Shown here one piece after another: positions 15,389 through 46,233 of a stretch of 64,000 nucleotides of DNA (position 1 is the first letter of the stretch; each line of letters begins with the position of its first letter). The notes below the pieces were generated by a model. It had not been told where the DNA came from. It did no database searches and saw nothing but the letters and a program-made list of their open reading frames with translations. The stretch covers positions 199,770 to 263,769 of the forward strand of contig CAKOMG010000002.1 of NCBI GenBank assembly GCA_934096585.1, given 5' to 3'. The stretch comes from an uncultured Bacilli bacterium (GTDB taxonomy: Bacteria; Bacillota_I; Bacilli_A; ML615J-28; CAG-698). A program made the translations under genes and the position numbers.

Positions 15389-15391
15389 TTA

Positions 15392-17837: not shown

Positions 17838-17862
17838 GAACATATTTCAGAGATTAATAATT

Positions 17863-19591: not shown

Positions 19592-20365
19592 TTAATTTTG
19601 TGCAAAAGCATTTTTAATTATTACACTTAAAATTTCTAAAATATCATGTTTATGTGTTGATGAACACATTCCAAAACAAATAAATAAATCAAAAATAATA
19701 GATTTCATAGAAACATCAAAGGTTAGAATTCCATATGGTGTTTTTGCTGCAGTATTATTAATAATATTAGCACTATTATCAAATGCATCAACTGGAATAA
19801 TTAAATATAACATTGGTTGAACTCCTGTTGCGTATTGTTGCTTTTGTATCATGATTTCTATCAGCAGTTTTGAGTCATTAGGCTTAGTAATAAATGTAGG
19901 TAATTTAGTTGAAGAAGATAAAAATTCTATATTGTTTATTAGTAATGGGGCTTCTTTTTTAACTTCGATAGAATATTGATCTTGTAAAAAAGTGTTATTA
20001 TTATGTATTTGATTATAAATATTAGATATTTCTTGCTCTGAAATAATATTATTTTTACACATAAAATAAGTGATTTCTGATAATTCATAAGGGTGCTTTC
20101 TTTTTTTATTTGCTCCGATAAAAACAAAATTGTCAGTGTTAAGCTGTGTATTTTTTTCATCATTTCCAATTATAGTGTCGTAACCTATCTGCCATTCTAA
20201 ATAAGATTTTTTTGAAATAATATTTGATTTTGGTGCAAAGCCACTACCAAAAGATTGAATGTCATCTCTTGTTTTGCATCTGAATTTTCCTTGGCTTGTT
20301 AAAGGTAAGTTAACGGTTAGTGTATTATCGTTATTATCATAAAACATTTCAGCTAATTTTCTCAT
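19592..20365 (-). CDS. hypothetical protein; candidate cognate restriction endonuclease (convergent with the MTase)
   Basis: 257-aa ORF with an RBS (aggaggaact) before the ATG. No clear nuclease motif. The call is contextual only. Confidence 0.35.
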   Translation of the reverse strand: MRKLAEMFYDNNDNTLTVNLPLTSQGKFRCKTRDDIQSFGSGFAPKSNIISKKSYLEWQIGYDTIIGNDEKNTQLNTDNFVFIGANKKRKHPYELSEITYFMCKNNIISEQEISNIYNQIHNNNTFLQDQYSIEVKKEAPLLINNIEFLSSSTKLPTFITKPNDSKLLIEIMIQKQQYATGVQPMLYLIIPVDAFDNSANIINNTAAKTPYGILTFDVSMKSIIFDLFICFGMCSSTHKHDILEILSVIIKNAFAQN

Positions 20366-28300: not shown

Positions 28301-28430
28301 AATCTATTATATTTTTGTGAGAGGATGCAATGAAGGGACAGGAAATGGAGTATATTGTCAGACATGGAATAATTATAAAGAATTAGAAAATTCATTTAAT
28401 GAAATTATTAATTCTAGAATATGGAGGTAA
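25296..28430 (+). CDS. recB: exodeoxyribonuclease V beta subunit RecB (SF1 helicase + C-terminal PD-(D/E)xK nuclease)
   Basis: EASAGTGKTY Walker A. IIDEFQDTN. VVGDPKQSIY. TMHTSKGLQF. YVAYTRA. C-terminal GFIDLLFKNGEYYSIVDWKSD nuclease motif. Confidence 0.8.
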   Translation: MNKMDQFKIENFKENINYVIEASAGTGKTYNIIEIVKKLLQGKNIKLNDILIVTYTEKAAGELRDRIRKELPEEDVDNVPIFTIHSFCQSVIKEFGISSNLPLNLSLVGNDELNEFADKFIRDCSLIDDIAECLKQGIEINIDTLKNKLVDGVDKYYLDSNYNEDSEIIVIKDSNEFLDEINKLKNKKANKSNNDKIKKSMIHFLSCKYLKQLYIAWQKEKELNKKESYNDMIRSVREAILDNKCLLKSKLQEKYKYAIIDEFQDTNQLQFDIFSNIFLCENHNIIVVGDPKQSIYSFQGADVNVYYKAVDEILKKGGLKCSLNTNYRSTQNIVTSCNQLFKHFDFDGMDQFEESICPTDEVHKREVLFDGKDIESFWIGNKDLNDIEYAKAVVKEIIICCEKDKNGKTRLQLKKGPEEFRNVSFKDFAILGRTRLEMQAICNIFKKVGIPFVKYKDLKLFNGKECADWKAIFEAIDCIDFTGSNRAIFKKALFTNFFGLSLQEIADEKYNTDESDQMVLISKWKLIASEKQWEDLIDDILVSSNIIDRMSSLTNIDSIGIYKQIGNYCVDYLTSNHSINDLINKLNDLSQGEEDTEDGNVVERSTNFDAIQLLTMHTSKGLQFPVVIAVGGFKQFPPEKGIVTYHKENKKILDFQINEEFKKERLEETKRLFYVAYTRAEYILMFPCVSKFITNNDKNFIIDSINQYENNNKFKRIDASIFNYKELKEKVQNILNKPAEESKEERVKQEEVLKTIIKESNSKKVYKHSYSSLSHSGVIDEDDNKEGVVIGGLSNFDTKVVSDNPYLNESNNAIQMPSDYPKGSNIGTCLHEILEKIDFTNTNNLIYIVKNSFSKNGFKDNDEKWNDYTKKIIDNVLNAKLPIIKGNNITNDYLLLSEIPNNCKKNEVEFSYNLLNEKLKNYCNGFIDLLFKNGEYYSIVDWKSDGLSDDFISFSSQKDLQEHVSDCYSIQRVIYSYSLIQWLKCYYKNETEEELFNNHFGGIYYIFVRGCNEGTGNGVYCQTWNNYKELENSFNEIINSRIWR

Positions 28431-30381
28431 TATGAACGAATATAATAATTTAAAAGAACTTGTTATAAAATATAAACTAATGTCTCCTATTTGGAAATAT
28501 GTTTTAGAGTTAATAGAAGAAGAATTAGACTTCAATGAAAATGAACGAGAGTATGTTTTGATATTGTTTATTATCTATTTTTGTTTAATAGACGATGGTA
28601 ATATTTGTATGTTACTTAATAAAAATATATTAAGTGAAAAGTGGAATGAAAAAGTAGAATCAACAATCATAATGCAAAGAAACAAGATGATTGTTGATGA
28701 CACTGAATTAAATACTATCAAAAAATTAACAAACGTAGCTATAAATGATTATTTATCTTTAATTAATAATGAGCATTTAAATAAAGTAATTGGTAAAAAT
28801 AAAGAATTTGAAATAGAAGATGGATGGTTATATTTAAGAAAATATAATATTGCAAGAAAAGGAATAATTAATTCTATTAAAAGATTATTTGATAAAGAAT
28901 ATATAGGAAACCCCCTTTATAATTATAAAGATTATTGTATTAAAAATGTTAATAATGAAAATAACAAAGAATTTAGTTTATCTAAAGGACAAGAGAATGC
29001 GGTAAACAAAGGATTTAATAAGAATTTAATTATTACTGGTGGTCCTGGGACAGGTAAGACGACTTCAATCTTATTTCTTTTAATTAACATTCTTACTTCA
29101 AATCTTGAAAGTAATGTTTATTTAATTGCACCAAGTGGAAAAGCTGCCAGTAGAATGAAAGAGAGTATAATAAAGGGATTATCATTAGTAAATGAAGAGT
29201 TTAAAAATAAAAATTATGATTTAATTGATAAAATAAATAAACTAGAGGAATCTACTATTCATAGATTATTATCTTATGATTATGAAACAAATAGTTTTTT
29301 ATACAATAAATATCATCCATTTAATCAAGATTCAATATTTGTAATTGATGAAGCTAGTATGATTGATATATGTTTATTTAATTCCCTATTAGAAGCAGTC
29401 CCTGATAATGCAAGAATATTTATTATGGGAGACAAAAATCAGTTACCTTCAGTAGAGTGTGGTGCAGTATTTGGTGAATTCCTAAAAATGAATGAATTAA
29501 AAGATAATATTATTGAACTAGATGAATCAATAAGGTTTAAAAAAGGAACAAAGATATATGAATTTGCGCAAGCAATTAATCAAGGAAATACTCTACCTAT
29601 ATCCAATGATGAGTTCAAGGAATTGAAAGACTTTACAATATATGAAGAAAATAATAATAAACCAATTTATTTCTTTAACTATAATGATTCAAAACAAGAT
29701 TTTGATAGTGTAATAAAAAAATGGGGTAATAAATATTATAAAAACCTTCAAATGAAATGTTCAAATCTTGATTATAACAATAGTGAATCTTTTAATGAAC
29801 TTTTTAGTTTAATAGAAGAATCAAAAATACTATGTGCTGAAAATGATGGTATTTATGGAGTTAAACAAATCAATAATATAATAAAAAAGAACTATGTTAA
29901 CAATTCAATAATTTCATATAATGGTCACTATCCTGGAGAAATTATGATGATTAATAAAAATAATAAAACATTAGATCTTTATAATGGTGATTCAGGAATC
30001 CTAGTTACTTTTGAAAATGACAATACTTTATATTTTATGATTAAAAAATCATCTACATTAGTAAATACAGATGAAAAGAAAAATAACAAAGTATTTAAAA
30101 AGGAACAGTATGTATTTTATCCATTAAGATTAATATCGTTTAATGAAATTGATTTAGCTTATGCAATTACTATTCATAAATCTCAAGGATCAGATTATAA
30201 AAATATTCTAGTGATATTACCTAAACAAAAAGGACATCCTTTACTTAATAGACAAATTGTTTATACTGCTATTACAAGAACAAAAGGAAATACATATATA
30301 ATTTCAAATCTTAATCGTTTAGAAGAAGCAAAAGACAATTTAATTATTCGCGATACTAACATAGCTAGTTTTAACGGTTGA
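28399..30381 (+). CDS. recD: exodeoxyribonuclease V alpha subunit RecD
   Basis: ITGGPGTGKTT. VIDEASMID. AITIHKSQGSDY. TAITRTKG. Overlaps the recB end by 32 nt. Confidence 0.8.
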   Translation: MKLLILEYGGNMNEYNNLKELVIKYKLMSPIWKYVLELIEEELDFNENEREYVLILFIIYFCLIDDGNICMLLNKNILSEKWNEKVESTIIMQRNKMIVDDTELNTIKKLTNVAINDYLSLINNEHLNKVIGKNKEFEIEDGWLYLRKYNIARKGIINSIKRLFDKEYIGNPLYNYKDYCIKNVNNENNKEFSLSKGQENAVNKGFNKNLIITGGPGTGKTTSILFLLINILTSNLESNVYLIAPSGKAASRMKESIIKGLSLVNEEFKNKNYDLIDKINKLEESTIHRLLSYDYETNSFLYNKYHPFNQDSIFVIDEASMIDICLFNSLLEAVPDNARIFIMGDKNQLPSVECGAVFGEFLKMNELKDNIIELDESIRFKKGTKIYEFAQAINQGNTLPISNDEFKELKDFTIYEENNNKPIYFFNYNDSKQDFDSVIKKWGNKYYKNLQMKCSNLDYNNSESFNELFSLIEESKILCAENDGIYGVKQINNIIKKNYVNNSIISYNGHYPGEIMMINKNNKTLDLYNGDSGILVTFENDNTLYFMIKKSSTLVNTDEKKNNKVFKKEQYVFYPLRLISFNEIDLAYAITIHKSQGSDYKNILVILPKQKGHPLLNRQIVYTAITRTKGNTYIISNLNRLEEAKDNLIIRDTNIASFNG

Positions 30382-31335: not shown

Positions 31336-32577
31336 ATGGAGCAATTTAATAAAATTATAGGATATGAAAATGTAAAAAAAGAATTAATTACAATTAGTGA
31401 TTACTTTAATAAAACGGATTTATGTAGACAACACAATGTTAAGTTACCTAAAGGAATTCTTCTTTATGGGGATTCAGGATGTGGTAAAACATTATTTTTA
31501 AAAGAATTTTGTAAGGTAACTAATAAATATGTAATAAATGTTCAAGGATGCAGTGATGATATAATTAAAGAAATTAGCGATGATTTTAAAGAAGCACGTG
31601 TTATAGGAAATACTGTAATAATTATAGATGAGTTAGACTTACTAATAAACAAAGATTATAGAATAGTTAGATTGTTGCAATCATATTTGGATGGATTTGA
31701 AGATTATGATGGAATTTTTGTAGTAGCAACAACTAATAATGTTGGAAAAATAGAAAATTCATTATTAAGAGAGGGGAGATTTGATAGAAAAATTAAAGTA
31801 GATTTACCAAATGAAAAAACAAGAAAGGAATTAATTGATTATTACATAAGACAATTAGGTCTTGATGTAAATGTTGATTCTGAATATTTATCAAAAATCA
31901 TGGTCGATAGATCTTGCAGTTTTATTCAAACAATTATTAATGATTGTTATTTGAGATTTAATCAAAACATTACAACTGATAATATTGATTATTCATATAA
32001 TGTTATTGCATATGGAAACACAAATGATTATATAAAAAATGATATAAATAAAACAATAGCCATTCATGAAGCAGGACATATTGCCTTAACATATAAAAAT
32101 AGAAAGTATTTTACTTTTTATAAAGCATCAATTAACACAAATTCAAATAAAATAAATGGAGTTTCAAAACTTTATGATGCAAAAGAACAAAATGATGATT
32201 TAGAAGAGTATATCGCAAAAATTGAAATTGATATTGCAGGTTTTTTAACAACATACAATTTACTAAAAATAAAAGATGGAGGTTCTTATGGAGATTTAAA
32301 AGATGCTATTTATAATGCAAGATTTTTAATCAATAGTTTAGGATACAAAATGCCAAGAAATGTATTGAGAGAATATGACCAATTTGAGGGTAGAAATGAA
32401 ACAGAAATTAACTGTCATCGCAATGAAATTTTCGTGAGAAAATTGATGAAAAAATGTGAAAGAAATGTAAAAAAATACATTATTAAAAATAAAAAGAAAA
32501 TATATGATATAGCAAATCAATTGTATGAAAGAGGATCAATTAAACAAAATGAAGTAATGGAAATAATGGAGAGGTAA
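31336..32577 (+). CDS. soluble FtsH-like protease: AAA+ ATPase fused to an M41-type HExxH metalloprotease. No transmembrane N-terminus
   Basis: Walker A GDSGCGKT. Walker B IIIDELD. Sensor-1 VVATTNN. REGRFDRKI. Protease motif TIAIHEAGHIAL. Confidence 0.7.
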   Translation: MEQFNKIIGYENVKKELITISDYFNKTDLCRQHNVKLPKGILLYGDSGCGKTLFLKEFCKVTNKYVINVQGCSDDIIKEISDDFKEARVIGNTVIIIDELDLLINKDYRIVRLLQSYLDGFEDYDGIFVVATTNNVGKIENSLLREGRFDRKIKVDLPNEKTRKELIDYYIRQLGLDVNVDSEYLSKIMVDRSCSFIQTIINDCYLRFNQNITTDNIDYSYNVIAYGNTNDYIKNDINKTIAIHEAGHIALTYKNRKYFTFYKASINTNSNKINGVSKLYDAKEQNDDLEEYIAKIEIDIAGFLTTYNLLKIKDGGSYGDLKDAIYNARFLINSLGYKMPRNVLREYDQFEGRNETEINCHRNEIFVRKLMKKCERNVKKYIIKNKKKIYDIANQLYERGSIKQNEVMEIMER

Positions 32578-32580
32578 AAA

Positions 32581-34257
32581 ATGAAAATAAAAAGAAAAAA
32601 TAAAGAAAAAGAAGAATTTATAGAAAACTATAAGAACTATTTAATAAATAATTGGGAAATGATTAAGGATTATGTAACTAATCGTACTATGAATATTAAA
32701 GTGAATAAGGAATGCTGGCCTGAAGATTTTCTACCAAATAATTATTTTTATGAAAAGAAAGGGTTCAATGAGATTACAAAATATAATAAAATACCAATAT
32801 ATCAATTGCTTTATTTAAATGGTATGGATGATATGTTTCAAATCGATAAATATGGAGCTATATTTTATTTAAGTGCTATAAAAAAGATTAATAATTCATC
32901 AAAATTGATTCTTGAGCCACTTGATAATAGAAAAAAATTATATGATGATTATGATTATAATTTGTTTATTAATTATAATAGTTATAATAGTTTATTTATG
33001 GGTTTTAGTGAAGAAGAAATCAAAAATAGAATAACAGATGGTTTAATAATTAAAGTGATTGACAATCATTTAGAATTTGAAAAGTATTTTAAATTAAATG
33101 ATTATGATCTTGGCGAATTACAGACAACAGAATTGCCTAGAGTAGCATCTAGATTAATAAAAAATAATAAATTTAATGACTTATCTATTTTAGAAAAAGA
33201 TGAAATCAATAAAATAAATTATTATGATTTTTTAAAAAAAATTTATAATTATGTTTCAAATATTGATGAACAAGAATTGAATGATATATATAAGAAGAGT
33301 TTATCTTTATTTTGTGATATTTGTTTGATTGCTTTTATTTTTATGTCTAAAATTGTTTATTTAAATAAAGTTAATGGCAAAACAAGAAAGTTTAATTATA
33401 AACTTTTCGATGATGAGAATAATGAAATTCTTTCAAAAACAGTTGATAATATTAGTCCATTTTTTATAAAAAATGAGATAATTAATTATGAATATAAAAG
33501 TAAACTAAAATTAGAAGGATTAAATTTTGAAATACAAGAAATTATAGATTATAAACAAAGAATATTAGATGATATGCTAGAAGAATATGTTAATTTGTTA
33601 GGAATGGATGGTGCAGTAAATAAAGCAAAAACATGGGATAATAGAGTAATACATTCGATTGCACATTCATTGATTTATCATTGCAAGGATCCTGAAACTC
33701 GATACAAGGCTATTGATGTATCTATAGAGTTGGTTAAACTTAATATTGATAACTTTATAAACAAAACTATATTTGGATGTTCTAGAGTTGATTATTATTT
33801 TATTTTAGAAGATATCACATTGATAATTGATGTATTATTAGACTCTAACATTCTTTCAACGCATAACTGTAGAAAGTATTTTAATATACCTAATGATTAT
33901 CATTATGATAATTTGTTAGCATTTGAATATTTGAAAAAGGGATATAAGCTGGTTTTACGATTCGGCGTAAATTATAAATTAATGTATTTATATGGATTAA
34001 TTTTATACAAAGAAATTTTTACAAAGAATACTAAAGAAGAAGGTTTACAAATCATAAAACAATATAATGAGCATTTAGAACATGACTTTGATGTCGCTTT
34101 AGCAAGGTATTGGCATTATTTGAAAGATGAAAAAAACTATGATAATGAACAATCGATTCAAGCATATATAGATAATAAATTAGAAAAGGTTGAAAAAATT
34201 AAACATGATTATTACGCCAATTGTAGTCAATGGAAAAATAGTAGCTCAAATTTATGA
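32581..34257 (+). CDS. hypothetical 558-aa protein, co-operonic with the FtsH-like gene (3-nt gap)
   Basis: ORF with RBS. No recognisable motif. Confidence 0.5.
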   Translation: MKIKRKNKEKEEFIENYKNYLINNWEMIKDYVTNRTMNIKVNKECWPEDFLPNNYFYEKKGFNEITKYNKIPIYQLLYLNGMDDMFQIDKYGAIFYLSAIKKINNSSKLILEPLDNRKKLYDDYDYNLFINYNSYNSLFMGFSEEEIKNRITDGLIIKVIDNHLEFEKYFKLNDYDLGELQTTELPRVASRLIKNNKFNDLSILEKDEINKINYYDFLKKIYNYVSNIDEQELNDIYKKSLSLFCDICLIAFIFMSKIVYLNKVNGKTRKFNYKLFDDENNEILSKTVDNISPFFIKNEIINYEYKSKLKLEGLNFEIQEIIDYKQRILDDMLEEYVNLLGMDGAVNKAKTWDNRVIHSIAHSLIYHCKDPETRYKAIDVSIELVKLNIDNFINKTIFGCSRVDYYFILEDITLIIDVLLDSNILSTHNCRKYFNIPNDYHYDNLLAFEYLKKGYKLVLRFGVNYKLMYLYGLILYKEIFTKNTKEEGLQIIKQYNEHLEHDFDVALARYWHYLKDEKNYDNEQSIQAYIDNKLEKVEKIKHDYYANCSQWKNSSSNL

Positions 34258-34961: not shown

Positions 34962-35774
34962 ATGAGAAAAAATTTGAATGATTATTTTGAAAGTGTGGAA
35001 AGAAAAATTGGCTATGAGTTTGAAAATGAAGATTTGTTAAGACAAGCATTTACTAGAAAATCTTATAGTTCAATTTATGGAACTGAAAATAATGAAGTAT
35101 TGGAATTTATTGGTGATAAAGTAATTGATTTGATTGTAGTTAAAGTTATTTCTGATTATTTTGGATTCTATAAATCAGAATCAGCTTATTATGATGAAGA
35201 TAATGATTTAAATGAGTTTTGTATTGTTGCTAATAAAGATGAATCTGATTTTACAGAAATAAAAAAAGAATTAGTATCAAATGAAAACTTGTCAAAAATA
35301 ATTGATAAATTAGATTTTGCAAAATTAATGTGGATGGGAGATAACGACATCAATAATCATATTGAAAAAGAGCAAAAAGTTAAAGCTGATTTATTTGAAG
35401 CAATAGTTGGTGCAATAACCATAGATTGTGATTGGAATATGGAAATATTGGAAGAGGTTATAAAAAGATTATTATATATTAATAATACACTGAAAAATGT
35501 TTCTACGGAAGAAGAAAGACCAGAAAAATTTACTGTTGAAAAAGCAATTAACACATTAAAAGAGCTTGCTGAACAAGGAAAATGTTCTGAACCTATATAT
35601 GAAATATCAGATGAACAAATATTTCAAGATGGAGAATATTGGTGGTCTTGTGATTGCACTGTTAATAGTTGGCATATTTCAGAAAGTGCACTTTCTAAAA
35701 GTAAAAAAGGTGCTAAAAAGTATACTGCTTATTTAGTTCTATGCACTAGATATAATCTAGATGTCGAGGAATAA
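34962..35774 (+). CDS. class-1 RNase III paralogue (catalytic domain with ~45-aa insertion, plus C-terminal dsRBD)
   Basis: RKIGYEFENEDLLRQAFTRKSYS. NEVLEFIGDKVID (E/D catalytic). ADLFEAIVGAITID (D/E catalytic). dsRBD-like SKKGAKKYTAYLVL. Confidence 0.75.
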   Translation: MRKNLNDYFESVERKIGYEFENEDLLRQAFTRKSYSSIYGTENNEVLEFIGDKVIDLIVVKVISDYFGFYKSESAYYDEDNDLNEFCIVANKDESDFTEIKKELVSNENLSKIIDKLDFAKLMWMGDNDINNHIEKEQKVKADLFEAIVGAITIDCDWNMEILEEVIKRLLYINNTLKNVSTEEERPEKFTVEKAINTLKELAEQGKCSEPIYEISDEQIFQDGEYWWSCDCTVNSWHISESALSKSKKGAKKYTAYLVLCTRYNLDVEE

Positions 35775-35777
35775 ATT

Positions 35778-36338
35778 ATGGAAAATTCACAAATTGAAGT
35801 GTTAAAGAAAAAGTATTCTCAAATAATTGATGATTTAATTAAAGTAAATAAGAAGTTTTATAAGCTTAATTATGAAATAAAATGGATTTTTATCTTTGAT
35901 GAAAATGTGGCAAATGTTTGTGCTTTTGATGCTAAGAAAGGTATAATAAAAATAAATGTGGTGACAGTTGCTTATTCTTATGAAAATAATCAACCTTTAT
36001 TTATTGAGTGTTTTCTATTACATGAAATAAGACACTTTTATCAACAATTAATAATTAATGAGTACTTAAGAAATCCAAATGAATGTATAAATAGTGTTAT
36101 TGCACAACAATGGCTTTTTGAAAAGAAAAATTATATTAAGCCTCTTGATGAAAATGGGCACTTAAATGTAAATTATTACCTACAGGACATAGAAATTGAT
36201 GCTTTTTCGTTTTCATATGCCGTTATAATATATAAATATGGTGATTTAAAATATCTTAAAATACCAAGTGCTTATCAAAATGAATATTTTAAAGAACAAT
36301 TGAATACTTGGATTGAACTATTTAAAAAAGAACAATAA
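35778..36338 (+). CDS. small HExxH protein (putative zincin-like metallopeptidase, ImmA/IrrE- or SprT-like), coupled to the RNase III gene
   Basis: CFLLHEIRHFYQQ. 4-nt intergenic gap. Confidence 0.5.
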   Translation: MENSQIEVLKKKYSQIIDDLIKVNKKFYKLNYEIKWIFIFDENVANVCAFDAKKGIIKINVVTVAYSYENNQPLFIECFLLHEIRHFYQQLIINEYLRNPNECINSVIAQQWLFEKKNYIKPLDENGHLNVNYYLQDIEIDAFSFSYAVIIYKYGDLKYLKIPSAYQNEYFKEQLNTWIELFKKEQ

Positions 36339-36673: not shown

Positions 36674-36997
36674 ATGAAAAAAACAATTTTAGCTATTATA
36701 TTATTTTTCATATTACTATTTATTGCTGGCGGATGTACTGCTGTCTTTCAAGGAGTAGAAGCGCTATGGCAAGCTATTATAGGATTTTTACCTATTTTTA
36801 AACCTGCCATTGAACAATCATTTAAAGATTATTTTACTTCTGCATACTTTATTGTTGGTGTAATAATTTTTATAGGTTCACTTTTTGGTATTACAATAAA
36901 CGTAAAAAATAGACATGTTTTATATGTGTTGATTTCTACAATACTGACTATTATTTCTTTATTAAGTATTATTACTAATTTGGTGGTGTGTAAATAA
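36674..36997 (+). CDS. small membrane protein (3 TM)
   Basis: Hydrophobic 107-aa ORF with RBS AAGGAGA. Its stop abuts the next ATG. Confidence 0.5.
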   Translation: MKKTILAIILFFILLFIAGGCTAVFQGVEALWQAIIGFLPIFKPAIEQSFKDYFTSAYFIVGVIIFIGSLFGITINVKNRHVLYVLISTILTIISLLSIITNLVVCK

Positions 36998-37495
36998 ATG
37001 AAAGAAAATGCTATATTATTATTAATAAAAGAAATTAAAAAAAGTTTAGAATCAGGAAATTATTTATCCGCATTAATTGTTGCATTAACAATTCCAGATA
37101 TTTGTGGGAAAATATTATATCCAAAAGAAACGAATGGTAAAAGATATAAAAAATGGTTTGACAAATATATTGGTGATTACAAAAATAGTCCGATATATAA
37201 GGATTTACCTGAATGCATAGGATGGACTAACATGAATGGCGAAAAATTTTATGCATTAAGATGTGCTATGCTTCATGAAGGCTCAGATGATATTGTTGAT
37301 AAAATCAAAATAGACAAATTCAACCTTTATTATGGAAACAATTCTATCATCGAAAAACATTGTGTTGAGTATAGAGAAGATTCCTTATTTGATGGTTCAG
37401 TAATAGAACATCCTAAAATTGAATCATTAGATATTAACGTATATGAAATATGTCAAAAAATAATTTTAGCTGCTAATTTTTTTTTTAAAAAATGA
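36998..37495 (+). CDS. hypothetical protein, coupled to the membrane protein
   Basis: The ATG follows the upstream TAA directly. Confidence 0.5.
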   Translation: MKENAILLLIKEIKKSLESGNYLSALIVALTIPDICGKILYPKETNGKRYKKWFDKYIGDYKNSPIYKDLPECIGWTNMNGEKFYALRCAMLHEGSDDIVDKIKIDKFNLYYGNNSIIEKHCVEYREDSLFDGSVIEHPKIESLDINVYEICQKIILAANFFFKK

Positions 37496-37747
37496 AGTTG
37501 ATGATTTATCAAAGCTCCCAACAATTCAATACAATCTTGGTATACCTTCAATATTTTTATCAAATACTAATTTAAAATAAATATAAAAAGAAAGCAATAA
37601 TTCTATGGATAATCAATCCATAATGATTATTGCTTTTTATTTTAGCTTATTAAAATTAATTTATATATTTTAAATAAATAGTTAAGTTTAAAAAATGAAA
37701 AAAAGATTCATAACTAAATGGTATACTATTAAAAAAAGGAAGGTAAA

Positions 37748-38707
37748 ATGATGGAATTAATCAAAGATTATAGAAATTTAGAAAATGGTTGGAATGGTGG
37801 ACTTTCAGAAGCATATGTTTGTTGTTTAAATCTAATTAATAATAAAAAGGTAAATAATATACTTTTTGATAAAAAACTTACAACAAAAATTCTTGATAAT
37901 AATTATTATATGCTATTACAAATAGTTTTGAAAGAAATTAAAAAATTATTACCTCAAGGGAATGGTAATAAATATATATATGAATGTATAGATTTAGATC
38001 AATTAAACAAGGAATGTGGTAAAAAAATGATTCCAATAGTTGATGAAATTCGAATAAAATATTATTGTGTTATCATAAGAAATATTATTAGTTATTTGAG
38101 TTCTGAAATTGAATTATTTAAAAAGTTAGAAAAAAAGACAGAAGAAGAAAGAAATAAACTGCTAGAAGAAATGGAAAGATATATAATAAGTTATTTTAAT
38201 GTATTTGAAAATCTTCCAAAACAAAATAGTAAAAAAAGTCGTAAAAATGACAATAATAAAAAAGAAACTGTTGAAGATAAAATAATTAATGAGTATATTG
38301 ATCAACTTAATGCATTCGAACAAAAGCCATTTGATCAATATGATTCTTTTGAAAATTACGTTGAAGAAACAATAACTGTTAAAAATAATATTGAAGAAGG
38401 AATTGAAAAAATTAATAGAAATCTTATTAAAAACAGTGTTGAAATAAATGAATTTGCTGAAAAGTATGAAATTAAAGTTGAAGAAGTTGAAAGAATCTTT
38501 ACTAGTGACAATTTTAAAACCTCATTAAGCAATAATCCAGTTGTTGATTGTTATAATTCATATATAAATGAAAATATTATAGGCGAATTTATAAATTTCT
38601 TTGGTCAACTTTTTTCATTTGAATTTAATGATAATTTAGAGGCAAATATTCCAGATTTATTTGAAACTCGTTCACAATACTATCATGGTAAATATAGAGA
38701 AAATTAA
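37748..38707 (+). CDS. hypothetical protein (coiled-coil-rich)
   Basis: ORF with RBS AAAGGAAGG. Confidence 0.5.
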   Translation: MMELIKDYRNLENGWNGGLSEAYVCCLNLINNKKVNNILFDKKLTTKILDNNYYMLLQIVLKEIKKLLPQGNGNKYIYECIDLDQLNKECGKKMIPIVDEIRIKYYCVIIRNIISYLSSEIELFKKLEKKTEEERNKLLEEMERYIISYFNVFENLPKQNSKKSRKNDNNKKETVEDKIINEYIDQLNAFEQKPFDQYDSFENYVEETITVKNNIEEGIEKINRNLIKNSVEINEFAEKYEIKVEEVERIFTSDNFKTSLSNNPVVDCYNSYINENIIGEFINFFGQLFSFEFNDNLEANIPDLFETRSQYYHGKYREN

Positions 38708-38728
38708 TCAAATTTTGAGTAAAGTTAT

Positions 38729-41700
38729 ATGAATAATATAGAAAGAATAGTTAATATAATAAAAGAAAAGATAAAAAGCAATCCTATAATTTTATTTAAT
38801 TGCTTTTTTACTGAGAAGATGCTATATGAATTATTAGTTGAAGAAGCAATTGATGAAAGAATCTTTTATTACATGATGTTTTTATATGACTTTGGATATG
38901 TTTCTGATGTGATATTTAAAAATAAAGATATTGCAATAAATAATATTAAAAATAAGAATAATGAATCGCAACTACCAATTCAAGAAATTAATTATTGGAA
39001 TTTAATCTTATCTGATGAAATAATTAAATGCATTAAGGAAACACATTTTAATGAACGAAAGTTAAATGAAAATGTTGGTAAAATTATATTTTTGAATGAA
39101 CCTTCATTTAATGATTCAAATTATTCAGGTGTTGATGGTGAATATGAAATTTATAAAGAACTAAAAACTTTTAATGATCAAAAATATAATGATTTTTTAT
39201 ATGCAAATTATAGAGTTAAAATACATAATAAAGATTATGAATCTGATTTTATAATAGTTTCAAATAATGTCATAATAATTATTGAAGTTAAAAATTGGCA
39301 TGGAGAGATTACAATCGATAAGTATGGTAATATTACAACTAATGGTTCTTTAGGATATAAAAATCCAATTTCTCAAAATAATAGACATGTTAATGATTTA
39401 AGAACTTTTCTTATAAATAAATTTGATATTGATATTCCTATTAAATCTGTAATAGTTTTTGGCAAAAAGTCACATGTGATTAATATTGATAAAGAATATA
39501 ATAGGGACACTGAAATAATTAATTATGATGAATTGAATTATTTTATACAAAAAACTATTCATAATGATGAAAATAAAAAGATTTTTGATAATAAAATCAT
39601 ATCATCATTCATTAATGTGTACAACAGTTTCGATAACACAAATTATATTTTTTATCCTGAAGATTTTATTAATTTAGAATTAGCAAATGAGTATTATAAA
39701 TATCAAGAAGTTGTTAAAGATTCAAATTATAAAAAAGGTAAAAAAATATTTCACTATTCAATAGATTCTACTAATAGGCAATTAGAAAATGATATGAATA
39801 CTATTTATTTTGATAAAATCATTAAATATAATATTCGTTTTAATGATGATATTAAGTATAATTGTTTTATAATCAATAGCTTTTTAAAATTCAATGTTAA
39901 ATGTAGATTTAAATATGCAAATTTAATTGCTGTAATTTATAATTATTTGCTTAGAAATAATGAAATAGATTCTTCATTAGATATACCTTTATTTATAAAT
40001 CATTATGATTATAATAATATTACAGATATAAGAGAACAATATCCTAAAATATTTAAATTAATGATAGTTATACTATTGCTTATTAAAAATAATTATTTTA
40101 CATTAAATGAAATGAATATTGAAATACCTTTTTTTATAGAAGATAAATATGAAAGTTTATTAACTATAGCAATCAAATGCTTGAATAATTATTTAGAAAA
40201 AATTTCATTATTAACCATAGGTAAAATATTAAAATTAAAAATTCAAGATGATGAATCATATGAAGTAGGATTTGAAAAAGATTCTAATTTGGATATTATG
40301 ATTTTAGATTATAATAATAAAAAATTCTCACAAGAAATCGAAGAAAATTCTTTATGGATTGAAGATAATATTAGATATAATATAAACGACAAAAATGATT
40401 ATATTTTAATTGATTTTTTAAAAGAATTTACACCTTTTACAGCATTTAAAGAAGGGCAATTAGATTTTATAAAAAATATTCTCAATTTTCCAACAAACAA
40501 AATTGTAATTATGCCTACGGGAAGCGGTAAATCATTAATATATTATTTTTGTGCAATTTTACAACCGAAAGTAACATTTATTGTTTCGCCTAACGATATT
40601 TTGATTAGTAATCAAATAAATAATTTAAAGAAAATTCATAGATATACTAATGTAGTTAAATTAAGTTATAAAACAAAAATAGGCTTAAATCAAATAATTT
40701 ATTCTACACCTATTATTTTACAAGAGGATTCACTTATTAGAGACATAATAGATTGTGACAACATATATAGTTTTGTTTTAGATGAAGTTCATTGTTTATC
40801 TTTCCTAAGTCATAATTTTAGACCAGAATATTTCACATTATCATCTAAACTAAATATGTTTTTCAAAAAGACATTATCTTTGGGTTTTACCGCAACTTCT
40901 GATTACGAAGTTACAAAAGATTTAGCAAAACAATTAACAATTAATTTTTCAGAACAGGATATCTTGGAAAATATAAATATGAGAACAGATAGGCTTTCAT
41001 ATGATATTAGATGTTATGATACAAGGGAAGAACAGTTAATTGCTTTGTTTGAATTATCCAAAAGGATTAGTGTACTTAAGAATATTGTTTTTGTAAAAGA
41101 TGAAAAAACAGCAAATGAAATATTTAAAATAATAGGAACAAATAAAAGTTTAATTTTTTCACAAGATGATCAGGGTGTCTTAGATTTATTTATAGATTTA
41201 AATAGTGGTTTTAATTTTTTAATTTGTGGATATGAATTAGGGATAGGATTAGATTTAGGTAATATCAGCAATGTTATACATTTTGGAATTCCTTACTCAA
41301 AAATGGATTATGTTCAACAAATAGGTCGTGCAGGAAGAAATGGAGAATATTGTAAATCTTACGTATTATATTTAAATCAACAGAAATTTGAATCCTATTT
41401 ATTTGATAGAAATTTAGAATACGATTCATTTATTAGTAAATTAATTGCAGATGAAAAAAACGATTATACAATGAGTTATTTAAATATATTTAAAAAATTT
41501 TTAAATTATAATAAACAAAAGAAAGAATTTAAAAATATTCTATTACAAGTTATGGAAGATTATTTTAATCGCGGATTTACTACTACCATTTTGACTGAAA
41601 ACAATGATTTCTGTTTTTATATTTTACAAGCACTTGGAATTATATCATACTGGGGAAAAAATAAAAATCAAGTGGTACTTTGCTTGAATAAATTAAATAA

Positions 41701-42442
41701 TATTAGTTTAATTAAAAATAACTTTCGAACATACATGTCTATTATTGGAAATAATGATATGAATGAAAAAATATCTTATTGCAATGATATGACTAAATTA
41801 GCATTATTATTTTATGATGTTTTTGTAGAAAACTACATTATTTCTAAAAGAAACCAAGTGTTTGAACTTCTAGAAATGTTAGAAAGATATAAAGACCAAA
41901 TGAATGTTTCAAATGAAATTAATTCAGAAATTGAGAATTTTTTTGCATTGCCTTTTATGCGTGTTTCTAAATGTGAAAATTGGATAAGAAAAGTCCCTTT
42001 AATGGATATTAACTCTAATATTTTATCTTTTAATTCAGACGATATAGATAATATTATCAATGTCGTTGATTTAATAAATTATGCAACACCTAGTGTTTAT
42101 TACTTAAAACTATTGCGAGAATATGTAAATAATAGTGAAATAAAAGATTTTACAAATAAGATTGAACAGATTTGTAATAAATTAGATTCATACAATATTT
42201 TTAATTTATTTATATCTTTTGGTGATGTTTTAAAAAAATTATCGAGCAATGAAAAAAAGAATTTTGATAATTATTTATTACAAGTTTTATCTATGATGTC
42301 AAATTTAATTTCAATAGATAATTTTAATGTGATGTCAAAAAAATATATAAATAATTTATCAATTGAATCAAATAAATACTATGCATTAGCTATTTATTTT
42401 GACGAATATATTAAAAAAATGAGGAAAGATAAAAATGGATGA
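38729..42442 (+). CDS. NERD-domain / RecQ-family SF2 helicase fusion protein (1237 aa)
   Basis: NERD-like DFIIVSNNVIIIIEVKNWHGEI. RecQ motif I MPTGSGKSLIYY. Motif II VLDEVHCLSFLSHNFRPEY. Motif VI QQIGRAGRNGEY. Confidence 0.7.
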   Translation: MNNIERIVNIIKEKIKSNPIILFNCFFTEKMLYELLVEEAIDERIFYYMMFLYDFGYVSDVIFKNKDIAINNIKNKNNESQLPIQEINYWNLILSDEIIKCIKETHFNERKLNENVGKIIFLNEPSFNDSNYSGVDGEYEIYKELKTFNDQKYNDFLYANYRVKIHNKDYESDFIIVSNNVIIIIEVKNWHGEITIDKYGNITTNGSLGYKNPISQNNRHVNDLRTFLINKFDIDIPIKSVIVFGKKSHVINIDKEYNRDTEIINYDELNYFIQKTIHNDENKKIFDNKIISSFINVYNSFDNTNYIFYPEDFINLELANEYYKYQEVVKDSNYKKGKKIFHYSIDSTNRQLENDMNTIYFDKIIKYNIRFNDDIKYNCFIINSFLKFNVKCRFKYANLIAVIYNYLLRNNEIDSSLDIPLFINHYDYNNITDIREQYPKIFKLMIVILLLIKNNYFTLNEMNIEIPFFIEDKYESLLTIAIKCLNNYLEKISLLTIGKILKLKIQDDESYEVGFEKDSNLDIMILDYNNKKFSQEIEENSLWIEDNIRYNINDKNDYILIDFLKEFTPFTAFKEGQLDFIKNILNFPTNKIVIMPTGSGKSLIYYFCAILQPKVTFIVSPNDILISNQINNLKKIHRYTNVVKLSYKTKIGLNQIIYSTPIILQEDSLIRDIIDCDNIYSFVLDEVHCLSFLSHNFRPEYFTLSSKLNMFFKKTLSLGFTATSDYEVTKDLAKQLTINFSEQDILENINMRTDRLSYDIRCYDTREEQLIALFELSKRISVLKNIVFVKDEKTANEIFKIIGTNKSLIFSQDDQGVLDLFIDLNSGFNFLICGYELGIGLDLGNISNVIHFGIPYSKMDYVQQIGRAGRNGEYCKSYVLYLNQQKFESYLFDRNLEYDSFISKLIADEKNDYTMSYLNIFKKFLNYNKQKKEFKNILLQVMEDYFNRGFTTTILTENNDFCFYILQALGIISYWGKNKNQVVLCLNKLNNISLIKNNFRTYMSIIGNNDMNEKISYCNDMTKLALLFYDVFVENYIISKRNQVFELLEMLERYKDQMNVSNEINSEIENFFALPFMRVSKCENWIRKVPLMDINSNILSFNSDDIDNIINVVDLINYATPSVYYLKLLREYVNNSEIKDFTNKIEQICNKLDSYNIFNLFISFGDVLKKLSSNEKKNFDNYLLQVLSMMSNLISIDNFNVMSKKYINNLSIESNKYYALAIYFDEYIKKMRKDKNG

Positions 42443-43451
42443 TAAAAAAATTGAAATTATAAAAGAACACATAGATTCCTTTGTTAATGATATGGTTGAT
42501 ATTAATAAAATTGAAGAAACATTAAAACTATATTATACTAATATAAAAACACAAGTAGAAGTTTTTACAACTGAATTTAACAAAAATAGAGAATATTTGT
42601 TAAATCAAATTGAAAAAGAGCGAAATCAATTAAATAATTTATCTTCAAATCAAATTGATTTGTTTAAAGAAGAAGCAAGAAAAGAACTAGAAGCTTTTAA
42701 AAAATTTAATAATGATTTAAATGAAAATCATAAGTCTTTTACTAGTGAAATCGAACGAATGATTTCCAATATCATTGAAAAAAATCAAAACCATTTACGA
42801 GATTTATCTTCTCAACAAATTGAATTATTTAAAGAGCAAACCGAAAAGCAAATAAAGAGTAATAATGAGCTAATTGATAATTACAAGCGAAATCAAAATG
42901 AATTTAGTAGTAATTTTAATCAGGCCTTAGTTACTTTAAACAGTTCAATATCAAAATATAATGATGAAAGTATTAGATATTTTGAAAAAAACAATAAATT
43001 AGTTATAGATTGTGAAAATAGATTTCAACAAATTAATAATGATGTTGATAATATTAGTAAAATAATAAAGGATTCAACAACAATAATATCAACAGAATTT
43101 AATAATATTATTCAAGTATTAAATAATTCATACACACAAATTAATGAATTTCTTATTAGTTTTAATAATAGTGTTGAAATTAATAATAAATTAATAAGTG
43201 ATAATTTTATTAAAATGTCAACAGAATTGAATGATGAATTTAATTCTATTTCAACAAAATTTAGTAATATCTTAGATGATAATAATAAAATAAATAATGA
43301 TATTAAACTAAAAATTGAATCGATAAACCAATATAGTGAAGAAAATCGTGAAAATAATAAAATGATTAAAAAACAAATGAAATTCTTGTGTGTTGCAATT
43401 ATTATTAACTTTTTAATTTCATTAGCATTGTTAATTTTATATTTTGTATAA
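42435..43451 (+). CDS. coiled-coil protein with a C-terminal transmembrane anchor
   Basis: Repetitive N/Q/E/K-rich heptad-like sequence ending in FLCVAIIINFLISLALLILYFV. Overlaps the helicase stop by 8 nt. Confidence 0.55.
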   Translation: MDDKKIEIIKEHIDSFVNDMVDINKIEETLKLYYTNIKTQVEVFTTEFNKNREYLLNQIEKERNQLNNLSSNQIDLFKEEARKELEAFKKFNNDLNENHKSFTSEIERMISNIIEKNQNHLRDLSSQQIELFKEQTEKQIKSNNELIDNYKRNQNEFSSNFNQALVTLNSSISKYNDESIRYFEKNNKLVIDCENRFQQINNDVDNISKIIKDSTTIISTEFNNIIQVLNNSYTQINEFLISFNNSVEINNKLISDNFIKMSTELNDEFNSISTKFSNILDDNNKINNDIKLKIESINQYSEENRENNKMIKKQMKFLCVAIIINFLISLALLILYFV

Positions 43452-43470
43452 TATACAAATTTATTTATAA

Positions 43471-43515
43471 AGACAATAATTTTTAAATGGTAATCATTAA
43501 ATTATTGTCTTTTTT
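43471..43515 (+). terminator. rho-independent terminator
   Basis: 12-bp perfect stem agacaataattt/aaattattgtct followed by TTTTTT. Confidence 0.7.
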
Positions 43516-43785: not shown

Positions 43786-45120
43786 ATGTTAAAAAGAAAG
43801 ATTGATTTATTTTTAAAAAAATGGTTTAACAACAATAATAGACATCCATTAATAATTAGAGGACCTAAATTAATTGGCAAAACTACTTCAATAATGAGCT
43901 TTGCAAAAACACATTATGAAAATATTATCTATATTAATTTAATGGATGATCAAAGATATAAAAAAGCATTTGAATATAATAATCAATCACAAGTCTTATC
44001 TTGTTTATTAAAAATGAATCCAGAATTAAAATTTATTCCTAATAAAACTATAATAATTATAGATGAAATACAAGAATGTCCAAATGTCTGTACATCGCTA
44101 AAATCATTTAGCTTGGAAAAACAATATGATATAATATGTATTGGTGTGATATTAGATATTCATTTAGAAAAAATTCAAAGTATACCAGTAGGATATAAAC
44201 ATGAATATATAATGCGTTCATTGGATTTTGAAGAATTCTTATGGGCAAATGGATATGATGAGTTTCAAATAGATAACGTTTATTCATATTTAAAACAATT
44301 AAAACCACTACCAATTGAATTATATAATAATCTTTTAAAATTATTTAAAGATTATATAACGATAGGTGGAATGCCTGAAATTGTTGATGAATATATTAAA
44401 GGAAAATCAATAAATGATTTATTATCAATGCATTATTCCATTTATCAAACATATAAAAATGAAATAAAGAGTTACGTAGAAAAGAAAAATGTAAAAAAAA
44501 TAGAATTAATTTTTGATAATATAACAAAAGAATTAATAAGTAATGATGACAAATTTGAAATTCATGATTCATCAATTCGCTATAAAACATATAATTATTA
44601 TGAATGTATTAATAGTTTAAAAGATGCTGGAGTAATTAATATTGCTTATAACTTACAATCTCTTGATTTACCTTTAAAGGGAAATGAAATAGATAATTAC
44701 TTTAGAATATATTATAGTGATACATCTCTACTATTATCTTCAATTGATGAAGAATCAAAAAAAGACTTCATTATTAATAATAATTTTCAAATTTATAATG
44801 GAGCTTTATTTGAAAACATAGTTGCAGAAGCTATAACAAAACAAGGATATGAAGATATATTCTTTTATAAAAATGATTCAGCAACTATTGAGTTAGATTT
44901 TGTAATAAGAGTAAAAAATGAAATAATTCCTATAGAAGTAAAAGCTAAAAAAGGAAGAGCTAAATCATTAAGAACATTATTAGATGAGAATATAGTTAAT
45001 TATGGAATTAAACTATCAAATAACAATATAGGATTCGATGGTAAAATATTTACAATTCCTTCATTTCTTACATTCTTATTAAAAAGATTTTTTAATGAAA
45101 CAGATTATATAAAATGGTAA
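43786..45120 (+). CDS. AAA-family ATPase of the DUF4143 (archaeal-ATPase-like) type
   Basis: PLIIRGPKLIGKTT Walker A. IIIIDEIQECPN. Confidence 0.6.
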   Translation: MLKRKIDLFLKKWFNNNNRHPLIIRGPKLIGKTTSIMSFAKTHYENIIYINLMDDQRYKKAFEYNNQSQVLSCLLKMNPELKFIPNKTIIIIDEIQECPNVCTSLKSFSLEKQYDIICIGVILDIHLEKIQSIPVGYKHEYIMRSLDFEEFLWANGYDEFQIDNVYSYLKQLKPLPIELYNNLLKLFKDYITIGGMPEIVDEYIKGKSINDLLSMHYSIYQTYKNEIKSYVEKKNVKKIELIFDNITKELISNDDKFEIHDSSIRYKTYNYYECINSLKDAGVINIAYNLQSLDLPLKGNEIDNYFRIYYSDTSLLLSSIDEESKKDFIINNNFQIYNGALFENIVAEAITKQGYEDIFFYKNDSATIELDFVIRVKNEIIPIEVKAKKGRAKSLRTLLDENIVNYGIKLSNNNIGFDGKIFTIPSFLTFLLKRFFNETDYIKW

Positions 45121-45135
45121 ATAAGGAGTTACATT

Positions 45136-46233
45136 ATGTTTGAAAGTAAAAATCAAAAGTTTATAACTAAGTTAATAGAAGTAATGAATAAAAATAAGGG
45201 ACAATTTAAAAACATTGATTCACCTGACAAATTTTCAAAATTTAATATATTCATTAAAAATGAAATTAAAAAAATAGAATCATTAGATATTATAGATGGT
45301 GATTTACATTACTCACTTCATATGAATGAACTTCTTAAAGAAGACTTTTATGAACCAGAATTATTCCCCGCAATATACTTTCCAAAAAACAAAATAATAG
45401 TATCAATGAAGTTTAAAGATACATTCATTAAAAAGAAAGAAGATACTATAATATTTGCCATATGTTATGATATTACAAGTGATGCACTTAAATATTATTC
45501 TAATAACTGTTTAAAAACGGATATTTATTTTAGTGAAATAAAGAATGGCAAATTAGATCCTATTATAGCTATCAAAAATGTAAATGCTGAAAGAATAATT
45601 GCGGATATAATAGCTTTACCTCATTTACAAACAAATGAAAGTAGTAGCAATACAATAAGAAGAGCAATAGGAGAAAACATATTTTATTTATTAGATAAAG
45701 ATTTATTAAGAATAGTTTTAAGTCAAGATGATGATCCATTCTCTGGACATTGTATTTGGGGAACTGAGATTGTTGAAAACTATTATTTAATGCTTGAATT
45801 ATTCACAAATCTCTCATTATCTTACTATACTCCTAATCCTGAAAAAATAGATTACTTTATCCAAGGATTCTTTGAATTTCATAAAGATTATGTATTAAGT
45901 GCATTTTGGCCAAACTTATCCACAAAAGCAGAGAATAATGAATATACAGAATTCGGGATAGTAATGAATAGAAATACTAAAAAAATGAGATTCTTTGCGG
46001 AAAGAAAATCAATCTTCTTATCACAAACAAGTTTCCTAATAGATGAATATTATGAAGATGGAACAAAGTATTGTTGGTTAAAAGAAGATATTGAACAAGT
46101 ATATGACAGTAATAAAGATCCAATTGAAATCTTTGCAAGAAACATTTGGTTTTTACTTGAAAATGAAGAAACATTAAAAAGAAGTGCAAAACAAAATTTA
46201 ATGTTTTATGTGAATGGGATAAAGATTAAATAA
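45136..46233 (+). CDS. hypothetical protein
   Basis: ORF with RBS AAGGAG. Confidence 0.5.
   Translation: MFESKNQKFITKLIEVMNKNKGQFKNIDSPDKFSKFNIFIKNEIKKIESLDIIDGDLHYSLHMNELLKEDFYEPELFPAIYFPKNKIIVSMKFKDTFIKKKEDTIIFAICYDITSDALKYYSNNCLKTDIYFSEIKNGKLDPIIAIKNVNAERIIADIIALPHLQTNESSSNTIRRAIGENIFYLLDKDLLRIVLSQDDDPFSGHCIWGTEIVENYYLMLELFTNLSLSYYTPNPEKIDYFIQGFFEFHKDYVLSAFWPNLSTKAENNEYTEFGIVMNRNTKKMRFFAERKSIFLSQTSFLIDEYYEDGTKYCWLKEDIEQVYDSNKDPIEIFARNIWFLLENEETLKRSAKQNLMFYVNGIKIK

Follow-up and report, generated by a model that had tools for sequence, protein, structure and literature searches.

A RecQ-like helicase bearing a NERD nuclease domain and a tail-anchored partner: a candidate membrane-tethered immune module in an uncultured Bacilli bacterium

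We analysed a three-gene operon in a stretch of 64,000 nucleotides (nt) from contig CAKOMG010000002.1 of an uncultured Bacilli bacterium. This stretch is called the window below, and positions are given within it unless another locus is named. All three open reading frames (ORFs) are on the plus strand, and the central one encodes a helicase that carries a NERD (nuclease-related) domain (Table 1). A first-pass annotation, made from the letters of the sequence, had described a fusion of NERD with a RecQ-type superfamily 2 (SF2) helicase of 1237 amino acids (aa); its coordinates, the fusion itself and the motifs quoted for it were all recovered from the ORFs and from Pfam and RecQ-family profiles. 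Because the G+C content of the window is only about 24%, the 3.7-kb helicase ORF is far above chance expectation.

A gap of 21 nt separates the upstream gene from the helicase start, and the helicase and downstream ORFs overlap by 8 nt (ATGGATGA), as the ORF coordinates confirm. The Shine-Dalgarno sequence of the downstream gene, GAGGA, sits within the 3' end of the helicase gene, an arrangement typical of translational coupling of the downstream gene to the helicase. Two intrinsic terminators border the unit: the left one closes the preceding two-gene operon, while the right one marks the end of the helicase operon. Neither hairpin was picked up by a terminator consensus scan because the scan demands three G-C pairs. 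From the gap, the overlap and the two terminators, the upstream, helicase and downstream genes therefore constitute a single discrete transcription unit.

Table 1. Operon, helicase domains and neighbouring genes in the window. Residue numbers refer to the protein named; pLDDT, predicted local distance difference test, from AlphaFold2 (AF2) models; dG, free energy.
Feature	Position (nt)	Strand	Remarks
Upstream gene	37748-38707	+	319 aa
Helicase gene	38729-42442	+	1237 aa
Downstream gene	42435-43451	+	338 aa
Left intrinsic terminator	37589-37638	+	A+T-rich hairpin then U-run; dG -20.8 kcal/mol, z -5.8, 0/200 shuffles as stable
Right intrinsic terminator	43469-43512	+	A+T-rich hairpin then U-run; dG -13.4 kcal/mol, z -4.1, 1/200 shuffles as stable
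Helicase, helical N-terminal domain, residues 1-113	38729-39067	+	all-helical; AF2 pLDDT ~80
Helicase, NERD, PD-(D/E)xK nuclease domain, residues 118-280	39080-39568	+	alpha/beta fold; most 10-residue blocks pLDDT 73-94
Helicase, flexible/disordered linker, residues 302-359	39632-39805	+	pLDDT <50
Helicase, "middle" alpha/beta domain, residues 363-536	39815-40336	+	family-specific; pLDDT 85-97
Helicase, RecQ-type SF2 motor (RecA1+RecA2), residues 554-885	40388-41383	+	Foldseek RecQ-family probability 1.0
Helicase, helical hairpin (889-946) and winged-helix-like element (951-986), residues 889-986	41393-41686	+	DSSP of AF2 models
Helicase, all-alpha C-terminal domain, residues 992-1237	41702-42439	+	family-specific; pLDDT 78-96; relatives' consensus WYYxxFLYxHREQ
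Downstream protein, hydrophobic segment, residues 313-338	43371-43448	+	extreme C-terminus
Large ORFs of 399, 788, 520 and 579 aa	within 1-17131
Helicase IV/UvrD-like protein	3586-6429		947 aa
Type II methyltransferase	17836-19083
R.Pab1-like restriction enzyme	19592-20365	-	convergent with the methyltransferase
recC/recB/recD-like genes	22472-30381
AAA + peptidase-M41-like protein	31336-32577		413 aa, soluble
AAA + peptidase-M41-like protein and following gene	31336-34257		413 and 558 aa
RNase III-like protein and HEIRH protein	34962-36338		270 and 186 aa
Pair ending at the left terminator	36674-37495		107 and 165 aa
PDC-S01 member and following gene	43786-46233		second protein 365 aa

Both catalytic parts of the helicase are intact. 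NERD (Pfam PF08378) was found at residues 134-244 with E 4.6e-19 and a score of 69.4 bits (cut-off 22.1), the match covering profile positions 2-110 of 111, and all 11 NERD-bearing members of the family keep its tetrad E138, D173, E186 and K188. Pfam places DEAD at residues 576-729 and Helicase_C at 784-872. The RecQ-family profiles TIGR00614 (E 1.4e-35) and TIGR01389 (E 1.4e-34) align to residues ~563-885, and the same part of the protein matches the solved RecQ, BLM, WRN, RECQL5 and RECQL4 chains of the PDB, with E down to 2.5e-20. The landmarks of a RecQ-type motor are all present, namely motif 0 (Q577), Walker A (K601), a Walker B of the DExH type (DEVH, 685-688), the aromatic-rich loop FRPEY and the arginine fingers R867 and R870. 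The stretch DEVHCLS...FRPEY falls at residues 685-701 and QQIGRAGRNGEY at residues 863-874. The catalytic residues of the helicase are identical in 76 of the 76 sequences that occupy those columns; one of the 77 alignment rows is gapped there.

The cut-offs for a canonical RecQ were not reached by the window protein (TIGR01389, 119.5 versus 640.2 bits; PRK11057, 92.5 versus 1015), and Pfam gave no match in it to the RecQ Zn-binding, RQC and HRDC domains (PF16124, PF09382 and PF00570). The true RecQs P0005-P0007, retrieved by the word-indexed protein search described below, bear all three. By these profile measures the window helicase is not a canonical RecQ.

An AF2 model of residues 380-1237, built from a 96-sequence alignment, has a mean pLDDT of 90.9 and a predicted template modelling score (pTM) of 0.91, and a second model covering residues 1-1200 has a pLDDT of 85. 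The long N- and C-terminal extensions reported at first are indeed present, but they are not featureless, since they resolve into discrete domains in these confident models. A helical hairpin occupies the place of the RecQ Zn-binding module, and the element after it, with the motif LYxLxxxGxIxxW, resembles a winged helix in its helix/strand pattern alone. The middle domain has neither a Pfam match nor conserved catalytic-type residues. Foldseek queries with whole models against the PDB (to April 2026) and BFVD returned only helicase cores, with query-normalised TM-scores of at most 0.39 and 0.26, respectively; the middle domain was not queried on its own. A PDB sequence profile search with a 126-residue stretch, which takes in the winged-helix-like element and the first part of the all-alpha domain, gave no match. 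Through Pfam, the profile libraries and the whole-model fold search, we could detect no characterised counterpart of the middle and C-terminal domains. Two new domains flanking the RecQ core are defined in this way, both with confident models and with no match in the solved structures or profile libraries searched. The all-alpha C-terminal domain is a candidate docking site for the partner proteins.

We then consider the family to which the helicase belongs. In a word-indexed search, 5.8 billion clustered proteins yielded only three full-length relatives, with 34-40% identity, and the same kind of search with a 76-sequence family alignment gave the earlier matches and generic RecQs, and nothing more. 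An exhaustive HMMER search was performed with a profile of residues 120-1237, in which the window protein was included, against 1.84 billion representatives, and the family counts given here refer to its best 149 representative clusters. The region N-terminal of the RecQ core, that is, the middle domain (residues ~363-536), was matched in 122 clusters, the region C-terminal of the core in 109 and both regions in 96, while the match started at NERD in 9. Based on these matches, we assign the helicase to a large unnamed family; at least 96 of these clusters have in common a chassis in which the middle domain, the RecQ core and a helical C-terminal domain follow one another. The window protein has all three parts, its C-terminal domain being all-alpha.

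The N-terminal parts of the family fall into several unrelated classes. For example, a group of 41 clusters has N-terminal regions of 75-353 aa, some with coiled-coil-like segments, and a group of 23 clusters has regions mostly of ~110-170 aa. Singleton heads include DUF4145 (P0036) and a PDC-M16A-like head (P0047), PDC-M16A being a PADLOC candidate. NERD occurs in two lineages: in that of the window (P0001, P0002, P0004 and P0020-P0022) a helical N-domain precedes it, and in the other (P0072, P0074, P0088 and P0099) it lies at the extreme N-terminus. The NERD-RecQ fusion emphasised in the first-pass annotation is real, but with NERD in about 9 of 149 clusters it does not define the family: the domain is one of several swappable heads found on a conserved RecQ-like chassis. 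An hhalign comparison between the pre-NERD domain and the N-domain of the NERD-less 23-cluster group gave a weak match (P 2e-4, probability 46%). If this correspondence holds, it weakly suggests that NERD was inserted into an older architecture. The relative P0004 (L004 10001-14242) carries a ~170-aa E/K-rich insertion at the place of window residues ~302-359, which is the linker disordered in the AF2 model, and therefore the linker between NERD and chassis tolerates large changes in length.

Three further searches describe where such proteins occur. A contig scan using an alignment of the NERD clade and NERD-only patterns retrieved stand-alone NERD proteins of ~275-380 aa in Clostridia, and the NERD-only patterns retrieved no NERD-helicase fusions. 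Plasmid and phage records, queried by tblastn, yielded only generic RecQ cores and no member of the family, a result that we treat as neutral for a role in defence. The C-terminal-domain pattern WYYxxFLYHHREQ was located in 0 viral and 3 metagenome loci, two of them informative. The DNA of the window is chromosomal, and relatives occur in human-gut metagenomes.

The most constant companion of the helicase is the protein encoded directly downstream. In the window, a Kyte-Doolittle hydropathy scan gave one hydrophobic segment at its extreme C-terminus with a Lys-rich stretch before it, and no second transmembrane (TM) segment, in agreement with the single anchor claimed previously. A lone C-terminal TM preceded by Lys-rich residues therefore implies a tail-anchored protein with N-in topology. 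The soluble part starts with the conserved motif hExxIxxFxxNh (residues ~5-30) and continues as a helical stalk of ~280 aa. It had been described as repetitive, but self-BLASTP revealed no internal repeat and Tandem Repeats Finder (TRF) nothing relevant. Since the soluble part has a hydrophobic periodicity of 3.6 residues and no internal repeat, the term "helical stalk" is justified. The coiled-coil character proposed for both partner proteins is putative and is drawn from composition, the 3.6-residue periodicity and weak matches to coiled-coil families. The downstream protein also matches the PADLOC ZorA profile weakly (best E 3e-6), at ZorA tail positions 359-586 of 699 only. These matches are probably compositional because they are confined to the tail region, and homology with ZorA was set aside.

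The partner was surveyed in 13 distinct loci containing the helicase 3' end: the window, L001, L004, L005, L038, L040-L043, L046, L047, L049 and L051. Their helicases are as low as ~21-26% identical to that of the window, and their G+C contents range from 20% to 51%. In 11 loci, i.e. all except L005 and L047, a tail-anchored helical protein is encoded directly downstream, at distances from a 23-nt overlap to a 24-nt gap and usually overlapping. These proteins have 107-338 aa, and each consists of the hExxIxxFxxNh motif, a helical region of variable length and one TM at the extreme C-terminus. At L005 the contig ends after the N-terminal motif of the anchor gene, and at L047 the downstream protein has the motif and lacks the TM. 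The stalk length across the family is ~100-310 aa, roughly a threefold natural range. The survey strongly reinforces the earlier idea of a membrane-tethered partner, and the pair of helicase and anchor emerges as the invariant unit of the family. What the window contains is a rare NERD version of this RecQ-like chassis and tail-anchored stalk, with a third subunit of its own.

At L046 (2011-4169, minus strand), a second, unrelated tail-anchored helical protein of 123 aa is encoded beside two others, one HD-like (192 aa) and one bearing an IEVKVHD motif (351 aa), in convergent orientation to the helicase module. Helical partners with a tail anchor may represent a wider theme.

The third subunit is the upstream protein of 319 aa. 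It has no TM and no match in Pfam, NCBIfam, PADLOC or PHROGs. An N-terminal motif, DYRNLExGWxGGxSEAY, is conserved, and the remainder is divergent and E/K-rich. Genes for homologues immediately precede those of NERD-RecQ helicases in L005, L048 and L049/L050, which cover both NERD lineages. Between the window and L048 the upstream proteins are 39% identical and the adjacent helicases 68%. The upstream gene was first taken as a generic flank; instead, it represents a family linked specifically to NERD-type helicases and diverging much faster than they do. We propose that its product is a regulator or sensor subunit. Other loci differ at this position: L004, L038 and L040 have another type of upstream gene, L041 and L042 have a superfamily 1 (SF1) helicase gene directly upstream, and L043 has no upstream partner gene.

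A small, fast-evolving protein tightly linked to an enzyme and encoded before it, an order that suits many toxin-antitoxin pairs, would also be expected if the operon were a toxin-antitoxin or abortive module of the PsyrTA/RqlHI type. The nuclease-helicase would then be genotoxic and restrained by the upstream protein as antitoxin, by the anchor or by both, and infection would free the toxin and lead to the destruction of host and phage nucleic acid. PsyrTA/RqlHI consists of a RecQ-like helicase toxin and a DprA-like antitoxin, and its defence activity has been shown (Millman et al. 2022). PsyrT is the best PADLOC match of the window helicase (E 2.4e-36), and the two systems have in common a RecQ-like SF2 core, a multi-gene accessory module and possibly the genotoxicity of the helicase. 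However, the PsyrT alignment is limited to the helicase core (profile positions 12-386 of 689), the window system adds NERD, the middle and all-alpha domains and an obligatory tail-anchored partner, and neither neighbour has a DprA or PsyrA match in Pfam or PADLOC. Most NERD-less members lack the upstream family, and yet all of them keep the membrane anchor, which suggests that localisation, rather than neutralisation by an antitoxin, is the conserved principle. We regard the toxin-antitoxin explanation as unlikely.

Some observations were made on the other upstream partners. The rpoZ ORF of L001 (9269-9940, Rpb6 domain at residues 16-68) has a C-terminal extension of ~150 aa that is 48% identical (E 2e-38) to a repeated module of the L004 upstream partner. 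It seems from this alignment that the upstream partner in L001 is fused in frame to the omega subunit of RNA polymerase at the island junction, which may either have arisen by chance on insertion or reflect a functional tie to the polymerase. The upstream partners of L004 (8489-9964), L038 (7157-7891) and L040 (2059-3213) share the N-terminal motif IG..IYh..YG...IV. A likeness by eye of this motif to the CarD/TRCF domain for RNA polymerase interaction found no support in Pfam (E<=1) or in a PDB profile search and is retained as no more than a lead.

We next turn to the genomic context. The window operon sits within a long stretch of accessory genes that may span ~45 kb. The stretch includes a type II methyltransferase with a convergent R.Pab1-like restriction enzyme, the recC/recB/recD-like genes and the AAA + peptidase-M41-like protein, which has partial matches to IetA (E 1.5e-15). 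Starting 335 nt downstream of the operon is a gene whose product strongly matches the PADLOC candidate PDC-S01 (AAA_14 + DUF4143; E 1e-124), and the housekeeping genes MATE, TrkH and PepT start farther right. Elsewhere, L041 has a Mokosh-like helicase on one side and a type IV restriction enzyme on the other, the neighbours at L051 include AbiEii, a Schlafen/AlbA_2 protein and a resolvase, and a cluster of TerY_C, kinase, VWA and PP2C genes, similar to the "TerY-P triad", comes directly after the helicase-anchor pair at L040 (7095-12100).

There is also evidence of mobility. Helicases with 91% identity occupy two different chromosomal sites in L001 and L004, and the L001 system is inserted as two genes between gmk-rpoZ and priA-fmt. 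At a site common to L004 and L038 the flanks are 78-92% identical, while the helicases are 51% and the anchors 45% identical. Conflict systems are usually marked by sporadic distribution, mobility, occupancy of hotspots and accelerated divergence. The membrane is the entry and exit site of conjugative DNA, L042 is located inside an element with a serine recombinase, a Mob_Pre relaxase and a PIF1-like helicase, and resolvases adjoin the L004, L040 and L051 systems; a membrane-associated helicase-nuclease could accordingly serve as a DNA-processing accessory of mobile elements that aids transfer, replication or the exclusion of competitors. We find this account quite improbable. Several loci (the window, L001 and L049) have no transfer or replication genes nearby, defence genes ride mobile elements as well, and swappable N-terminal modules together with rapid divergence are typical of conflict systems.

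The same observations bear on whether the protein is a housekeeping RecQ paralogue in recombination or repair whose neighbours are unrelated to it, as its RecQ-type core and the recBCD-like genes of the window might be taken to say. This is the least probable of the explanations considered, and we give it hardly any weight: the equivalog score is far too low (119 versus 640 bits), the Zn/RQC/HRDC domains are absent, full-length relatives were extremely sparse in the word search of 5.8 billion clustered proteins, the loci differ among related genomes with the helicase diverging beyond its flanks, and the partner gene is translationally coupled in all loci. Because their distribution is sporadic, their sites differ and their divergence is accelerated, a core recombination role is disfavoured for the relatives in general.

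To compare the operon with known defence systems, PADLOC-DB 2.0.0 was searched with the window protein and eight diverse relatives. The helicase matches were limited to the generic core, plus traces through NERD (PglW) or motif VI. Neither PADLOC nor NCBIfam assigned the protein to a named helicase-nuclease defence family beyond the generic RecQ core, and a full-text search of the literature found no description of a defence system combining a NERD/RecQ-like helicase with a tail-anchored partner. DpdF, from the Dpd 7-deazaguanine DNA-modification/restriction cluster, shares the RecQ-like core (PADLOC DpdF profiles, E 1e-34 to 1e-14), but only the first ~340 profile positions are involved (e.g. 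14-342 of 610) and the NCBIfam DpdF model gives 58 bits where 550 are required. No match to other Dpd components was found among 20 neighbouring ORFs.

Nhi is a single-gene system of a nuclease and an SF1 helicase, and Hna a single-gene system of an SF2 helicase with a C-terminal nuclease. The window protein is similar to both in having nuclease and helicase in one polypeptide and in its defence-island location. However, its motor is of the SF2 RecQ type and not SF1 as in Nhi, its domain order is the reverse of Hna with the nuclease at the N-terminal side and of another type, and in contrast to both it has conserved partner genes. PADLOC gave no Nhi or Hna match, the presence of Nhi or Hna profiles in the libraries being unconfirmed. 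Hachiman likewise pairs a PD-(D/E)xK nuclease (HamA) with an SF2 helicase (HamB), but in the window the two are fused, and Hachiman has no membrane partner; none of the operon proteins matched HamA (DUF1837) or HamB in PADLOC at E <=0.01.

Zorya type I reportedly combines ZorC and the helicase-nuclease ZorD with a membrane motor, ZorAB, that extends a long helical tail into the cell. The similarity to our operon is conceptual, i.e. a membrane-anchored component, a long helical stalk and an SF2 helicase/nuclease effector. Unlike Zorya, the operon has no MotA/ExbB-type multi-TM channel, its anchor has one C-terminal TM, and its effector is RecQ-like with NERD rather than a SNF2-like ZorD. The operon proteins had no PADLOC match to ZorB, ZorC or ZorD. 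WRN, whose structures are among the best fold matches, also has a nuclease N-terminal to a RecQ-family motor, but that nuclease is a DnaQ-like exonuclease and RQC and HRDC are retained; outside the core, the similarity is one of analogy and not homology. The NERD module itself is common to the PglW/BREX kinase, the MADS6 kinase and ZwsA, and the matches to MADS6 (E 3.4e-10) and PglW are weak and run through NERD only. Those proteins join NERD to kinase or RNA-binding domains and have neither a RecQ-like motor nor a tail-anchored partner. In ZwsA, NERD with the same E/D/ExK tetrad, which is essential there, is the catalytic nuclease of a defence effector that targets RNA (bioRxiv 10.64898/2026.04.06.716636).

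An intact nuclease and motor in one chain, a coupled tail-anchored partner, a fast-evolving upstream partner and a context of defence and mobile genes are thus found together at this locus. We interpret the operon as a horizontally mobile three-gene module that protects against phage and other foreign DNA by means of a nuclease-helicase tethered to the membrane, and we put the probability of this interpretation at about 0.5. The nuclease-helicase immunity role suggested in the first-pass annotation fits the intact catalytic residues and the defence-island-like region, but its placement with Nhi or Hna does not, given the other superfamily or domain order and the partner genes. In the proposed mechanism, the conserved ~30 N-terminal residues of the anchor would dock on a family-specific domain of the helicase, probably the C-terminal or the middle one, and hold the enzyme beneath the cytoplasmic membrane, the length of the stalk (100-310 aa) determining how far below. 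By analogy with the 3'-5' translocation of RecQ, the motor would load onto incoming phage or plasmid DNA and feed it to the NERD nuclease for degradation. Confinement to the membrane, the upstream protein or both would keep the enzyme away from the chromosome. The upstream protein would bind through its conserved N-terminal motif, with its rapidly diverging body acting as a sensor, specificity or inhibitory subunit.

Several points weigh against this interpretation. The role in defence is drawn from the context of about a dozen loci. The NERD-less members have no recognised nuclease, and the common mechanism of the family may not be DNA degradation. ZwsA, the only characterised defence NERD cited here, cleaves RNA, and with RecBCD genes in the same region the context is compatible with a link to recombination.

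A broader form of the immune interpretation can be put forward only tentatively, as we consider it possible but somewhat doubtful. The operon would be a variant of an unrecognised immune class that consists of a membrane-stationed RecQ-like motor, a swappable effector or sensor head (NERD, DUF4145, PDC-M16A-like and others), a tunable stalk of ~100-310 aa and a hypervariable small specificity subunit. Stationing at the membrane would let the motor meet foreign DNA where the DNA enters. More speculatively, some variants may couple to RNA polymerase, as the rpoZ fusion occurs at one locus.

As a helicase-anchor pair in an unnamed defence-island family, the system is a good candidate for a new anti-phage system. 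If confirmed, it would extend the nuclease-helicase branch of bacterial immunity by a new family, and would be the second case after Zorya, and a much simpler one, of an effector positioned at the membrane on a long helical stalk. With one TM helix, a stalk of threefold variable length and one enzyme, it is small enough to be convenient for asking how confinement separates self from non-self DNA.

Finally, we describe the other genes of the accessory stretch, as listed in Table 1. Most of the large ORFs at the left end of the window, those of 399, 788, 520 and 579 aa, have no NCBIfam match, and the helicase IV/UvrD-like protein lies in the same part. The IetA-like gene is followed by one for a 558-aa protein without matches, and the two may be an Iet-like or a novel ATPase-partner pair. 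The RNase III-like protein, with RNase III domains and no dsrm match, is encoded 3 nt ahead of the 186-aa protein, which has the HExxH motif HEIRH and no family match; together they may form a separate two-gene module. The 107-aa protein, with membrane-like hydrophobic stretches by eye, abuts the 165-aa protein, which matches phrog_18591 (E 3e-31, unknown function), and this pair is a small operon of its own ending at the left terminator. To the right, the PDC-S01 member is followed after 15 nt by the gene for the 365-aa protein, which has no match in any library. With regard to the recombination genes, AddAB and not RecBCD is the usual enzyme in Firmicutes. The genome of the window, with 24% G+C, bears recBCD-like genes, and the related locus L001 has genes of the Firmicutes type.

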